DNA of 4,433 nt from a virus (IMGVR_UViG_2541047441_000013:1-4433); one strand, 5' to 3'. Positions 862 through 3,826 are shown, numbered from the stretch's first letter. Numbers and translations are program-made. Notes: a model not told the origin generated them from the sequence alone.

Positions 862-917
862 GGATATATAGTGATGAGGGTTATGTTTTCTGTGTTTATA
901 ATTAACATGTTTATTTT

Positions 918-947
918 TTGATGGTCATGTATTGTGGAAGGTAGATA
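918..947 (+). promoter_or_regulatory. Candidate sigma70 promoter in the AT-rich Q-distal spacer (possible pR'-equivalent or moron promoter)
   Basis: TTGATG (918-923), 18-bp spacer, TAGATA (942-947). Hexamers identified by eye in very AT-rich DNA, so false-positive risk is high. Confidence 0.2.
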
Positions 948-972
948 AAATGTTGCCTGGTGAATTGAAAAT

Positions 973-985
973 ATTGATAATCAAT
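973..985. promoter_or_regulatory. Perfect 13-bp palindrome ATTGATAATCAAT, candidate operator 28 bp upstream of the CPBP gene start
   Basis: ATTGAT (973-978), A (979), ATCAAT (980-985) is exactly self-complementary. Surrounding 19-mer 970-988 matches the Fur-box consensus GATAATGATAATCATTATC at 14 of 19 positions (hand alignment; AT-rich context). Confidence 0.3.
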
Positions 986-1012
986 CTTCATCATTAAATA
1001 AAAGGAGTGCTT

Positions 1013-1831
1013 ATGTGGATTGTGTTAGTACTGTCACTGTCAACTCTCAGTTGGCATAAGGTAGTGGCTTTTTCATTGTTGACGGTGTCTGTTGTCCTGG
1101 CTGTGCTTAATGATATTATTGATTGGTCGGTGTTATTTTTTGTTGCTACAATCGTTTTTTTTATTATTTTGAAGTTCAACTGGAAATATAACGCCTGGGC
1201 TAAATCTATATATGAAGTTGGCATAGTTTTATCAGCCATAGCATTATTTTTCCATCTATGGCCAGGGTTTCACAATCCTGTAGTGCTAAATTCTGTTACT
1301 GTTGGCCCTCAAAGTACTCCCTATACAATGTATTTTAATTTTGATAAAGCGCTGGTGCCATTTTTGTTAGTCCTGTGTACATCTTCTTTGTTTAAAAAAG
1401 AAGTAAAATCAGAAGTGTCTTTGTGGAAGTGGGGGGCTCTGTCGCTCTCTGTTCCTCTTATCCTGTTTTTGGCTGTTTTTTTTGGTGGATTAAAGCCAGA
1501 GATTCATTTTCCTGAGTGGTTGCCAGAGTTTATATTGGCTAATTTGTTTTTTGTGTCTCTGGCAGAGGAATCATTATTTAGAGGGTATATTCAATCACGG
1601 CTATCAGAAGTAACGTCTCCATTGGTTGCATTAATTGTGGCGGCTTTGTTGTTTGGTTTTTATCACTATTCAGGTGGTGCTTTACTTGTATTATTTGCCA
1701 CGTTATCTGGTGTTGTGTATGGATTGTCATGGATGTGGAGTGGGCGTTTGTGGGTTGCCACCCTTTTCCATTTTGGTTTGAATCTGTGTCACTTGTTATT
1801 CTTTACCTATCCATTTTTAAAACATAATTGA
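1013..1831 (+). CDS. CPBP-family intramembrane metalloprotease (CAAX protease / Abi, Pfam PF02517-like), polytopic membrane protein, about 272 aa
   Basis: ORF track 1007-1831. Preferred start is ATG 1013 with SD AAGGAG (1002-1007) 5 nt upstream. Three CPBP signature motifs occur in canonical order and spacing: EExxxR = AEESLFR (1562-1582), FxxxH = FGFYH (1652-1666), HxxxN = HFGLN (1769-1783). Multiple long hydrophobic stretches. Coding strand is T-rich with rare codons (ATA Ile at 1208, 1223, 1238; AGA Arg at 1580). Confidence 0.8.
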   Translation: MWIVLVLSLSTLSWHKVVAFSLLTVSVVLAVLNDIIDWSVLFFVATIVFFIILKFNWKYNAWAKSIYEVGIVLSAIALFFHLWPGFHNPVVLNSVTVGPQSTPYTMYFNFDKALVPFLLVLCTSSLFKKEVKSEVSLWKWGALSLSVPLILFLAVFFGGLKPEIHFPEWLPEFILANLFFVSLAEESLFRGYIQSRLSEVTSPLVALIVAALLFGFYHYSGGALLVLFATLSGVVYGLSWMWSGRLWVATLFHFGLNLCHLLFFTYPFLKHN

Positions 1832-1884
1832 TTTTTTCTATGGTTTTAAATTTATAAGACTGAAAAATAGCAGGACGTGACATT

Positions 1885-1925
1885 TGCATGAAAAATATGC
1901 ACGGCAAAGCATTTACGTACGTAAA
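1885..1925. promoter_or_regulatory. Operator-like inverted repeats: TGCAT-N7-ATGCA (1885-1901) and perfect 14-bp palindrome TTTACGTACGTAAA (1912-1925)
   Basis: Both repeats read directly from the sequence. They lie in the 286-bp intergenic region between the CPBP gene and the 65-aa ORF, just upstream of a terminator hairpin. Possible promoter hexamers TTTACG (1912-1917) and TATGCT (1934-1939) with a 16-bp spacer. Confidence 0.3.
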
Positions 1926-1972
1926 AAATCAGGTATGCTGTTAAGAGTGGTTATTTCGCCGCATAGCTTGAC

Positions 1973-1994
1973 CCCGCCTCTGAGCGGGTTTTTT
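1973..1994 (+). terminator. Intrinsic terminator (tR'-like): CCCGC / GCGGG stem, 6-nt loop, T6
   Basis: Stem CCCGC (1973-1977) and GCGGG (1984-1988), loop CTCTGA, then TTTTTT (1989-1994). Confidence 0.5.
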
Positions 1995-2117
1995 GTGCCC
2001 GCAAAGTAGCGCAGTGCGTTAAATGTGCTGGTAGTTATTAATACAGGTCTTTCAGCTTGCTGGCTTTTTCGACAAGAGTTATTGGTGTGTCACGTTAACC
2101 GGAAAGGGTAAAAAGAC

Positions 2118-2315
2118 ATGCTGAAACAGCAGGATATGACAGAAACCGCCAGAGTTGTGTTTGATGAATTAAGCGTCACCGAACCGGCGACGGTCGGGGA
2201 GATTGCGCAGAATACGTACCTTTCACGCGAGCGCTGCCAGTTAATACTGACCCAGCTGGTTATGGCGGGTCTGGCAGACTATCAGTTCGGTTGTTACAGA
2301 CGCCTTCAGTCCTGA
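2118..2315 (+). CDS. Small hypothetical protein (65 aa), putative winged-helix DNA-binding protein (FaeA/PapI-like pattern)
   Basis: ORF track 2118-2315. AAGGG (2104-2108) lies 9 nt upstream of the ATG. Pattern ...TVGEIAQNTYLSRERCQLILTQLVMAGLA resembles the helix-turn-helix plus wing layout of small FaeA/PapI-type regulators (by eye, unverified). Stop codon is embedded in a strong terminator hairpin. Confidence 0.55.
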   Translation: MLKQQDMTETARVVFDELSVTEPATVGEIAQNTYLSRERCQLILTQLVMAGLADYQFGCYRRLQS

Positions 2316-2325
2316 AGGCTTTTTT
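2302..2325 (+). terminator. Intrinsic terminator overlapping the stop codon of the 65-aa ORF
   Basis: GCCTTCAG (2302-2309), TC, CTGAAGGC (2312-2319) gives a perfect 8-bp inverted repeat (effective stem 6-7 bp), followed by TTTTTT (2320-2325) then ATTTG. Confidence 0.7.
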
Positions 2326-2494
2326 ATTTGTGGTAAATGGGCGGCTGGTGGGTGTTAGCGGCACCTGTCAGTCCTTTGCTTATGTGTTGATGATCACCAG
2401 CCATCTGCTCATGCGTTGGGTTCACAAGCAAACCTCAGGCCCACTGCTTTGCGCAAAAGCAGAATGAGCCTATCAGAGACAGGCTTAATGATCC

Positions 2495-3553
2495 ATGCTT
2501 AATACTGTAAAAATATCCAGTTGTGAGTTAATCAACGCCGACTGCCTGGAATTTATGCGGTCGTTACCCGAAAATTCTGTTGACCTGATAGTCACGGACC
2601 CGCCGTACTTCAAAGTGAAACCCGAGGGCTGGGATAACCAGTGGGCGGGTGATGAAGATTACCTGAAGTGGCTGGACCAGTGTCTTGCGCAGTTCTGGCG
2701 GGTGCTGAAACCTGCCGGAAGTCTTTACCTGTTCTGTGGCCATCGTCTGGCATCTGACACCGAAATCATGATGCGTGAGCGGTTTAACGTGCTGAACCAT
2801 ATCATCTGGGCAAAGCCGTCCGGACGCTGGAACGGGTGCAACAAGGAAAGCCTGCGGGCGTATTTCCCCGCCACAGAGCGCATTCTGTTCGCAGAGCATT
2901 ATCAGGGGCCGTATCGTCCGAAAGATGCCGGGTATGAGGCGAAGGGTAGGACACTGAAACAGCATGTGATGGCCCCGCTGATTGCTTACTTTCGTGATGC
3001 GCGCGCTGTCCTGGGGATAACGGCAAAACAGATTGCAGATGCCACAGGAAAGAAAAACATGGTGTCGCACTGGTTCAGTGCCGGTCAGTGGCAGCTGCCG
3101 AACGAAAGCGATTATCTGAAATTACAGGCACTGTTTGCCCGGGTGGCAGAAGAGAAGCATCAGCGGGGTGAACTGGAAAAGCCCCACCACCAGCTGGTGG
3201 ATACGTATGCCTCTCTGAACCGACAGTATGCGGAGCTGCAGAGTGAATATAAGCATCTGCGGCGGTATTTCGGTGTGACGGTGCAGGTGCCGTACACCGA
3301 TGTGTGGACGTATAAACCGGTGCAGTACTATCCAGGGAAACATCCGTGCGAAAAACCGGCAGAAATGTTGCAGCAGATAATCAGCGCAAGCAGTCGTCCG
3401 GGAGACCTGGTTGCAGATTTCTTCATGGGGTCGGGGTCGACAGTGAAAGCAGCGATGGCGCTGGGACGTCGTGCAACTGGCGTTGAACTGGAGACTGAAC
3501 GTTTTGAGCAGACGGTGCGGGAAGTACAGGATTTAATCATTCGTAACGGATGA
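2495..3553 (+). CDS. Orphan DNA N6-adenine methyltransferase, beta-class (motif IV DPPY before motif I FxGxG), 352 aa
   Basis: ORF track 2495-3553. In-frame TGA at 2489-2491 fixes ATG 2495 as the first possible start. N-terminal ...DLIVTDPPYF (DPPY at 2597-2608) and C-terminal DLVADFFMGSGST (FxGxG at about 3422-3436) follow the order typical of beta-class amino-MTases; DPPY favours N6-adenine specificity. No restriction endonuclease gene is adjacent. Confidence 0.9.
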   Translation: MLNTVKISSCELINADCLEFMRSLPENSVDLIVTDPPYFKVKPEGWDNQWAGDEDYLKWLDQCLAQFWRVLKPAGSLYLFCGHRLASDTEIMMRERFNVLNHIIWAKPSGRWNGCNKESLRAYFPATERILFAEHYQGPYRPKDAGYEAKGRTLKQHVMAPLIAYFRDARAVLGITAKQIADATGKKNMVSHWFSAGQWQLPNESDYLKLQALFARVAEEKHQRGELEKPHHQLVDTYASLNRQYAELQSEYKHLRRYFGVTVQVPYTDVWTYKPVQYYPGKHPCEKPAEMLQQIISASSRPGDLVADFFMGSGSTVKAAMALGRRATGVELETERFEQTVREVQDLIIRNG

Positions 3554-3593
3554 GATTGCGGAGTTAATCATGCGTCGTTATTATTCAGCAATC

Positions 3594-3669
3594 GGCCCTT
3601 TAGCTCAGCGGTGAGAGCGAGCGACTCATAATCGCCAGGTCGCTGGTTCAAATCCAGCAAGGGCCACCA
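3594..3669 (+). tRNA. ileZ: tRNA-Ile (anticodon CAU, ileX/ileZ-like; presumably lysidine-modified to read AUA), 76 nt
   Basis: Hand-folded cloverleaf: acceptor GGCCCTT / AAGGGCC, D-arm TAGCTCAGCGGTGAGAGC, anticodon stem-loop AGCGA-CTCATAA-TCGCC (anticodon CAT), T-arm GCTGG-TTCAAAT-CCAGC, discriminator A, CCA encoded. Near-identical in architecture to E. coli ileX as I recall it. The Met versus Ile2 assignment rests on that similarity. Confidence 0.85.
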
Positions 3670-3670
3670 A

Positions 3671-3736
3671 CCGCCACTAGCTCATCAGGAAAGAACGTCA
3701 CCCTGTGCGAGATTCGGAGTCCCCGGTGGCGGTCCA
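3671..3736 (+). pseudogene. Degenerate tRNA-like element (possible decayed argN-like tRNA), 66 nt
   Basis: Perfect 7-bp acceptor pairing CCGCCAC (3671-3677) with GTGGCGG (3726-3732), discriminator T, CCA (3734-3736), U8-A9 and a TAGCTCA D-arm start. I could not fold a canonical anticodon arm or T-arm from the internal 48 nt, and it is about 10 nt shorter than its neighbours. Confidence 0.35.
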
Positions 3737-3749
3737 TTATCGGTATTCT

Positions 3750-3826
3750 GCGTTGTTAGCTCAGCCGGACAGAGCAATTGCCTTCTAAGCAATCGGTCAC
3801 TGGTTCGAATCCAGTACAACGCACCA
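3750..3826 (+). tRNA. argO: tRNA-Arg (anticodon UCU, reads AGA), 77 nt
   Basis: Hand-folded cloverleaf: acceptor GCGTTGT / ACAACGC, D-arm TAGCTCAGCCGGACAGAGC, anticodon stem-loop ATTGC-CTTCTAA-GCAAT (anticodon TCT), T-arm ACTGG-TTCGAAT-CCAGT, discriminator A, CCA encoded. Confidence 0.85.

Follow-up and report, generated by a model that had tools for sequence, protein, structure and literature searches.

In lambdoid and Shiga-toxin phages, the Q-to-lysis region is the classic place for cargo, and the locus described here raises the question of whether the cargo that it carries is one functional system or an assembly of unrelated parts. The locus lies in a stretch of viral DNA of 4,433 nt (IMGVR_UViG_2541047441_000013; 'the window' denotes the whole of this stretch). 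In the interval between the antiterminator gene Q and the end of a tRNA island (862–3826), a prediction made from the sequence alone (hereafter the original prediction) had listed a membrane protease, a small DNA-binding protein of 65 amino acids (aa), an orphan methylase and tRNAs. All of these are present, and two readings of them had been offered: independent morons in a known cargo hotspot, or parts of one uncharacterised, co-adapted system. Co-occurrence counts and locus comparison support the former and reject the latter. With a probability of roughly 0.85, this part of a lambdoid prophage, its Q-to-lysis hotspot, is a mosaic in which four or more cargo modules, all of them already known, assort independently. 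The genes are already annotated, two of them are experimentally characterised, and the locus carries little weight as a discovery.

Distribution of the cargo genes across genomes

Orthologues of the protease, which belongs to the CPBP family, were surveyed in GTDB (80 loci, one genome per species, 45–61% identity, neighbours within 8 kb). Not one of these 80 loci from other species has the 65-aa gene, the methylase gene, Q or RusA within 8 kb of CPBP. Recurrent co-occurrence with the 65-aa protein or the methylase, for which the original prediction had proposed to look, is thus not seen outside the prophage lineage. In Providencia, Photorhabdus and Xenorhabdus, the chromosomal order is modE-modF-CPBP-gpmA-aroG-pnuC; in Serratia and Yersinia, modE-modF-CPBP is followed by other genes. 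No phage genes were found near the orthologues in these modE-modF neighbourhoods (L012, L014, L026, L033 and many others, with CPBP at 8001–8800). The prophage copy has therefore been captured from a family that is chromosomal elsewhere.

Among 5,426 complete Escherichia coli genomes, CPBP is found in 572, and 1,896 have the 65-aa gene contiguous with the methylase gene. A probe that spans the three genes is covered, showing them to be contiguous, in only 14. At least six configurations occur downstream of CPBP (an AraC regulator; an intact, truncated or absent methylase; stx1d; five tRNA sets or none): in genome RM8082, for example, CPBP is accompanied by stx1d and by nothing else of the cassette. 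In O157:H7 genomes, what commonly follows CPBP is a 65-aa gene that is often frameshifted, then an AraC regulator of YdeO/GadX-like type, then three tRNAs. The O157:H7 copy in PV15-279 (L128) differs from the window in this way: it has no methylase, and a 237-aa regulator of the YdeO/GadX-like AraC family occupies the methylase position (7446–8159) beside a frameshifted 65-aa gene, with three tRNAs. The same Q-to-lysis interval in related prophages may hold stx2 or stx1d, the AraC regulator, different tRNA sets or nothing, as the description of independent morons in a cargo hotspot implied.

The distribution was also analysed from the side of the 65-aa gene, on which 80 viral contigs were seeded. 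An intact methylase gene adjoins it in 46/64 viral loci and an AraC regulator stands there instead in 6, and CPBP is located upstream in only 2 of 75 loci. In Salmonella and Klebsiella prophages, where other Q families precede them, the 65-aa and methylase genes are again neighbours, but neither CPBP nor tRNAs are present. These two genes form the only recurrent pairing in the interval, one that extends across genera and yet is separable.

Q, the CPBP gene and a candidate late promoter

Q (481–861, plus strand, 126 aa; PF06530, E = 8.7e-52) is a backbone gene outside the interval of the original prediction, and it is the only constant partner of the CPBP gene. CPBP is positioned directly 3′ of one Q allele in 572/572 of the complete E. 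coli genomes that carry it, and a Q allele of ~84% identity occurs without CPBP in 33 further genomes.

An element at 1912–1994, between CPBP and the 65-aa gene, would separate the two in transcription. Its first part is a candidate Q-specific late promoter (pR′/qut; 1912–1950, plus strand) recognised by comparison of sequences: a perfect 14-bp palindrome, TTTACGTACGTAAA, at 1912–1925 overlaps a −35-like hexamer, and a −10-like TATGCT at 1934–1939 is followed by a conserved initial transcribed region, GTTAAGAGTGG. Its second part, detected as a scan match, is an intrinsic terminator and candidate tR′ at 1973–1994 (plus strand), composed of CCCGCCTCTGAGCGGG and six T residues. The palindrome and −10 motif are present in 46/46 loci with this Q allele and CPBP, compared with 0/164 other loci; the 46 include some in which CPBP is only 60% identical and some without the 65-aa gene. 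A variant of the palindrome element is kept in L205, where Q is 83% identical and the cargo is different. In phages with other Q types, the sequence shared with the window starts at the −10 or at the terminator. A hairpin with a T-run is located at the same aligned position in 6/7 prophages compared, the exception being L129 (degenerate stem, no T-run). Both co-variation of the candidate promoter with the Q allele and its position just 5′ of an intrinsic terminator are therefore observed. Because the element tracks the Q allele, is kept in L205 and marks the point (−10 or terminator) where homology with phages of other Q types begins, we infer that it is the late promoter and terminator of Q. 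On this view CPBP would be a moron inserted between Q and the promoter on which Q acts, and the 65-aa gene, the methylase gene and the tRNAs would belong to the Q-dependent late transcript. In L205 the slot between Q and the late promoter is filled, instead of by CPBP, by an open reading frame (ORF) of 159 codons on the minus strand (5240–5719), whose product has a lipoprotein-like N-terminus and no Pfam match.

The arrangement that we propose is as follows. CPBP would occupy the short stretch that separates Q from its late promoter, probably with a sigma-70 promoter of its own from which it would be transcribed in the uninduced lysogen. It would be inherited together with the Q allele, presumably because any crossover in this stretch would part Q from its cognate promoter. 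The 65-aa gene, predicted to encode a winged helix, would follow downstream of the candidate pR′ and tR′. The methylase, of the M.EcoGII type, would be silent in the lysogen, behind two terminators, and would presumably be made only on read-through by Q-modified RNA polymerase in lytic growth, when its methylation of progeny DNA would protect against restriction. The variable tRNA island would be a fourth module.

Several points weigh against this mosaic of separate modules. The 65-aa and methylase genes recur together across genera and behind at least four Q families (46/64 viral loci; 7/8 Salmonella/Klebsiella places), so that 'fully independent' is too strong a description for this pair. 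Many of the loci counted are copies of one O157 prophage, and the counts are therefore not phylogenetically independent. The roles of pR′ and tR′ are drawn from comparative sequence only, and the −35 and −10 hexamers of the candidate late promoter each agree with the consensus at 4/6 positions and were missed by the scan. Finally, the complete linkage of CPBP to Q could reflect a functional tie and not position.

The 65-aa protein, the methylase and the protease

The 65-aa gene (2118–2315, plus strand; PHROG 331) is the first gene after the 1973–1994 terminator. Its product is 75–98% identical in prophages of E. coli, Salmonella, Klebsiella, Citrobacter and Buttiauxella, and the gene is frameshifted in many O157 copies. 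A second terminator-like hairpin (2302–2325, plus strand) overlaps its stop codon and is invariant in five aligned loci. The original prediction had described the product as a winged-helix DNA-binding protein. The matches obtained all point to this fold and none is significant: the Pfam winged-helix matches are all sub-threshold (TrmB, E = 0.0034), and the fold matches of the AlphaFold2 (AF2) model (three helices; pLDDT 72.7) are all winged-helix domains with E > 0.1. A winged helix is thus a weakly supported prediction. There was also one marginal PADLOC match (E = 0.0036).

The methylase gene (2495–3553, plus strand; N6_N4 methyltransferase, PF01555, E = 2.4e-43) encodes a protein that is identical to M.EcoGII at 325/350 residues (93%) over the full length, the reference sequence having been machine-read from Table S1 of PMC11551740. 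The two differ in length (352 versus 349 residues) and by ~25 substitutions. The order of motifs is that of the beta class (VTDPPYF near residue 33, FMGSGS near residue 310) and the alignment is ungapped through the central region, 160–237. M.EcoGI and M.EcoGII, from prophages of E. coli O104:H4 C227-11, are likewise prophage-borne orphans with the order DPPY–central domain–FxGxG. These enzymes and that of the window share their family context with the methylase of phage 1720a-02, which is 94% identical to the window protein and has been named as very similar to M.EcoGII (PMC5778455). Judged by its sequence, the protein is an orphan beta-class N6-adenine DNA methyltransferase, orthologous to M.EcoGI/GII, for which methylation in any context is predicted. 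No restriction-enzyme-like ORF, such as a type II restriction–modification system would have, was found beside the gene; its flanks are the 65-aa gene and the tRNAs, with no other ORF there that has a family match. A PDB sequence search returned distant beta-class enzymes only. M.EcoGII itself is a non-specific adenine methyltransferase, prophage-borne, silent in the lysogen and harmful if constitutive (PMC5778455), and the anti-restriction role that had been suggested for the window methylase fits this literature. Membership of the parts in a known anti-phage defence system was considered and rejected: PADLOC gave nothing for CPBP, and the methylase matched methyltransferase models only, as a lone methylase.

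Given their recurrence, the 65-aa protein and the methylase may constitute a two-gene unit, for example one in which the small protein controls the timing or level of a toxic methylase, with CPBP and the tRNAs as unrelated cargo. We consider this unlikely, though it is as strong as any of the alternatives. The two genes adjoin each other in 1,896 genomes of E. coli, in most of the viral loci and in Salmonella/Klebsiella prophages behind different Q families, and the spacer between the two genes is highly conserved. However, the 65-aa gene persists where an AraC regulator or TerB/DUF3927 replaces the methylase (and is intact in about half of the AraC-type copies), and in L088 and L092 the methylase has stayed intact although the 65-aa gene next to it is frameshifted. 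Moreover, M.EcoGII is active when cloned alone, so that its activity does not depend on a partner (PMC5778455). The one palindrome upstream follows Q and not the 65-aa gene, and adjacency may reflect no more than the location of both genes at the start of the late operon. Two specific versions of such control were rejected. The 65-aa protein is not taken as a controller (C) protein of a restriction–modification system, as its fold matches are winged-helix and not Xre, the upstream palindrome tracks Q and there is no restriction gene. Nor is TTTACGTACGTAAA taken as its operator, because the palindrome follows Q and not the 65-aa gene, being absent from ~75 loci in which this gene lies behind other Q types. 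The pair is nevertheless the only recurrent association in the interval that is worth a simple genetic test.

The CPBP gene (1007, GTG, or 1013, ATG, to 1831, plus strand; PF02517, E = 1.4e-19) is Z1787 of the E. coli O157:H7 EDL933 prophage CP-933N (O-island 50). The arms of the published lambda-Red primers for the Z1787 knockout match the window exactly, at 982–1015 and 1823–1860, and the Q gene preceding Z1787 in CP-933N is that preceding CPBP in the window. Many O157:H7 genomes carry this ORF at 100% identity. Its product scores 70.6 bits against PF02517 in Pfam (cutoff 22.4) and possesses intact catalytic motifs EExxxR (EESLFR, 185), FxxxH (FGFYH, 214) and HxxxN (HFGLN, 253), the residues of which are invariant across 26 homologues. 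The AF2 model (pLDDT 94.4) has as its top two PDB fold matches 4cad (Rce1) and 6u0o (SpdC), with probabilities of 0.91 and 0.99 at E-values of only 0.02–0.05. The sequence places the protein among the CPBP (Rce1-like) intramembrane glutamic proteases, and proteolysis is predicted. It shares the fold and the three catalytic motifs with Rce1, with SpdC/LyrA and MroQ of Staphylococcus aureus, and with the bacteriocin-immunity 'Abi' proteins. It differs from these known members in two respects. Its subfamily is enterobacterial and distinct, the N-terminal half being conserved (HLxPGFHNP, MYFNFDKA). In addition, its recurrent neighbour clusters included no recognisable partner of the bacteriocin, WalK-like or Agr-like kind, and no defence-system match was obtained.

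A candidate promoter for CPBP, TTGCCT-17 nt-GATAAT (953–981, plus strand), was found by consensus scan, with a Shine–Dalgarno sequence at 1001–1007. Both hexamers are kept in the diverged alleles L002, L129, L115 and L118. The site is a plausible promoter of CPBP itself and would fit expression in uninduced cells: the Z1787 transcript was detected in EDL933 without prophage induction (Jandu et al. 2009, PMC2654852). CPBP thus shows the features by which lambdoid morons are recognised, namely (i) presence/absence polymorphism (another gene in the L205 slot; no CPBP behind the ~84% Q allele in 33 genomes), (ii) atypical GC content (~0.34–0.40 in the CPBP segment and 0.38 in the gene, versus ~0.5–0.55 in the flanks), (iii) a promoter-like site, which is a putative promoter, and (iv) a transcript in the lysogen.

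The published work found on Z1787 consists of Jandu et al. (2009) and a transcriptome paper. According to the former, the transcript increases 2.7-fold with HEp-2 cells, and deletion of Z1787 leaves interferon-gamma (IFN-gamma)-induced STAT-1 phosphorylation no longer blocked, with complementation only partial (PMC2654852). The absence of phenotypes in single-gene deletions, which the original prediction had named as evidence against a joint system, therefore does not hold for this gene. Its suggestion that the protease serves exclusion or immunity found no backing, either in PADLOC, where the protease had no match, or in the recurrent neighbour clusters read, where nothing bacteriocin-like was seen. 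A bacteriocin-immunity function in particular was rejected: the recurrent neighbours read for the 80 orthologues are housekeeping genes (modABC/E/F, gpmA, aroG, pnuC), with no toxin or peptide genes among them.

These elements can be combined in one joint reading, which we offer tentatively and do not expect to hold in full. The gap between Q and the late promoter would be a 'linkage-locked' slot whose cargo is not lost without uncoupling Q. Z1787, expressed in the lysogen, would be an active protease acting on a host envelope or secreted protein in lysogenic conversion (interference with IFN-gamma/STAT-1 signalling, or immunity). Separately, the 65-aa protein would gate the toxic methylase. 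What the locus contributes to a partly characterised virulence candidate is a placement: Z1787 is located between Q and the likely late promoter and is tied to one Q allele, and its family is chromosomal in other Enterobacterales.

CPBP may alternatively be tied functionally to Q or to the late switch between lysis and lysogeny and be more than a hitchhiker. Linkage to the Q allele is complete (572/572), and in another prophage (L124, 6905–8834) a 55%-identical CPBP gene directly follows an unrelated lambda-type Q (PF03589), so that placement after Q recurs across Q families. On the other hand, the ~84% Q allele does without CPBP, the same slot in L205 is taken by a different gene on the opposite strand, the chromosomal orthologues have no phage neighbours, and no mechanism links a membrane protease to antitermination. 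We therefore judge a functional tie to be improbable and retain positional linkage within a mosaic. In a further prophage context, different from that of the window, a 47%-identical CPBP gene (L125, 7184–8822) adjoins two genes, one for LPMO_10 and one whose product has a phage tail C-terminal domain.

Recombinant origin of the window and its tRNA island

Over positions 1–2394 the window shares 99.96% identity with the prophage of CP-933N type in O157:H7 PV15-279 (L128), and over positions 1986–4433 it shares 97.7% identity with a different O157 prophage (L004). At 2366–2394, a 29-nt copy of the spacer of the AraC type (CP-933N) stands in tandem before the copy of the methylase type; none of the methylase-type loci used for comparison (L087, L004 and L001) has this segment. 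By its sequence, this segment is the scar of the crossover that made the present gene combination, which arose by recombination of two prophage types co-resident in O157:H7 genomes. L087 has the same gene set and is 99.3% identical over all 4,433 nt apart from the 29-nt gap; lacking these 29 nt and carrying different flanking single-nucleotide polymorphisms, it suggests a separate crossover.

That each half matches another O157 prophage, the two matches overlapping by 400 bp, would also be expected if the window were an assembly chimera of co-resident prophages and not a real molecule. No complete E. coli genome covers at least 80% of the window, and the 29-nt junction is in none of the four comparison loci aligned at the spacer. 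Against this, L087 matches the entire length except for the 29-nt gap, and in L088, L089 and L092, too, the methylase is combined with the CPBP allele of 100% identity. These four loci indicate that other recombinants of this kind exist, and an artefact appears quite improbable beside a true recombinant.

The tRNA island begins with a tRNA(CAT) of the ileZ type (3594–3669) and ends with a tRNA-Arg(TCT) of the argO type (3750–3826), both on the plus strand and both detected with ARAGORN and Rfam. The CAT tRNA is annotated by PGAP as tRNA-Ile in homologous loci (L004 and L128) and is predicted to read ATA after lysidine modification. ARAGORN makes no call in the 80-nt gap between them (3670–3749, plus strand). 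The gap aligns to the middle tRNA-Arg(TCG) of a Stx2 phage, minus 12 nt that match the anticodon-arm region, and is a degenerate remnant of argN. The same two-tRNA form is present in the O157 prophage L004. These are the ileZ/argO-type tRNAs of Shiga-toxin phages: in the Q-to-stx/lysis region of such and other lambdoid phages (933W, phiP27 and Stx2a phages; ileZ-argN-argO), the 65-aa gene, methylase gene and tRNAs share 85–92% DNA identity with the window in many Stx phages. The window differs in having no stx, a degenerate argN and the CPBP insert 5′ of the candidate late promoter.

The original prediction had assigned the tRNAs to the codons used by the cargo genes, and codon usage does not support this. 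All genes of the window, among them rusA and Q, use ATA at 11–16 per 1,000 codons. AGA is used three times over all three cargo genes and accounts for 0/23 of the methylase Arg codons, and the use of ATA, AGA and AGG in the cargo genes is no higher than in rusA and Q. The tRNA sets in CPBP loci are Ile-Arg-Arg, Ile-Arg, Thr-Gly, Gly, Arg-Gly or none. On these counts the tRNAs do not specifically serve the cargo genes, from which they also assort independently.

That protease, 65-aa protein, methylase and tRNAs form one co-adapted functional system is the least probable reading of all and can be dropped: the genes are adjacent and co-oriented in the window and keep this order in 14 genomes and in L087–L089, L092, L110–L114 and L002, but the idea is already refuted by the absence of co-occurrence outside the lineage (0/80), the kind of evidence that the original prediction had itself named, and, in addition, 558/572 CPBP genomes lack the contiguous trio, the methylase pair occurs in ~1,880 genomes that do not carry CPBP alongside it, CPBP is found with stx1d but with no other part, tRNA sets vary freely, the junction in the window is a recent recombination scar, the codons concerned are no commoner in the cargo genes than in rusA and Q, and M.EcoGII works when cloned alone (PMC5778455).

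The original prediction had also credited each gene with terminator or promoter-like signals of its own, which proved true in part. Promoter-like matches to the consensus group 5′ of CPBP (922–994), and the scan detected terminator-like hairpins at 1973–1988 and 2302–2319; it found no terminator 3′ of the methylase gene within the window, and the consensus scan gave no promoter match 5′ of the 65-aa gene or of the methylase gene. Overall, enrichment of such signals is modest, with 11 promoter-like matches in the window versus 6.3 ± 2.8 in shuffled sequences and 11 terminator-like matches versus 5.0 ± 2.5. Two small ORFs, 1884–2009 and 2291–2467, have no family matches and were rejected as genes; they are taken as non-coding because they overlap the promoter/terminator and an indel-bearing spacer. 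Upstream of the interval, rusA occupies 129–500 (plus strand). On the downstream side of the tRNAs, Rfam gives a strong match to the small RNA (sRNA) STnc100 (3936–4144, plus strand; 175 bits) and one to the prophage anti-sRNA AgvB (4146–4205, minus strand) that is barely above the gathering score (56.6 versus 56 bits).

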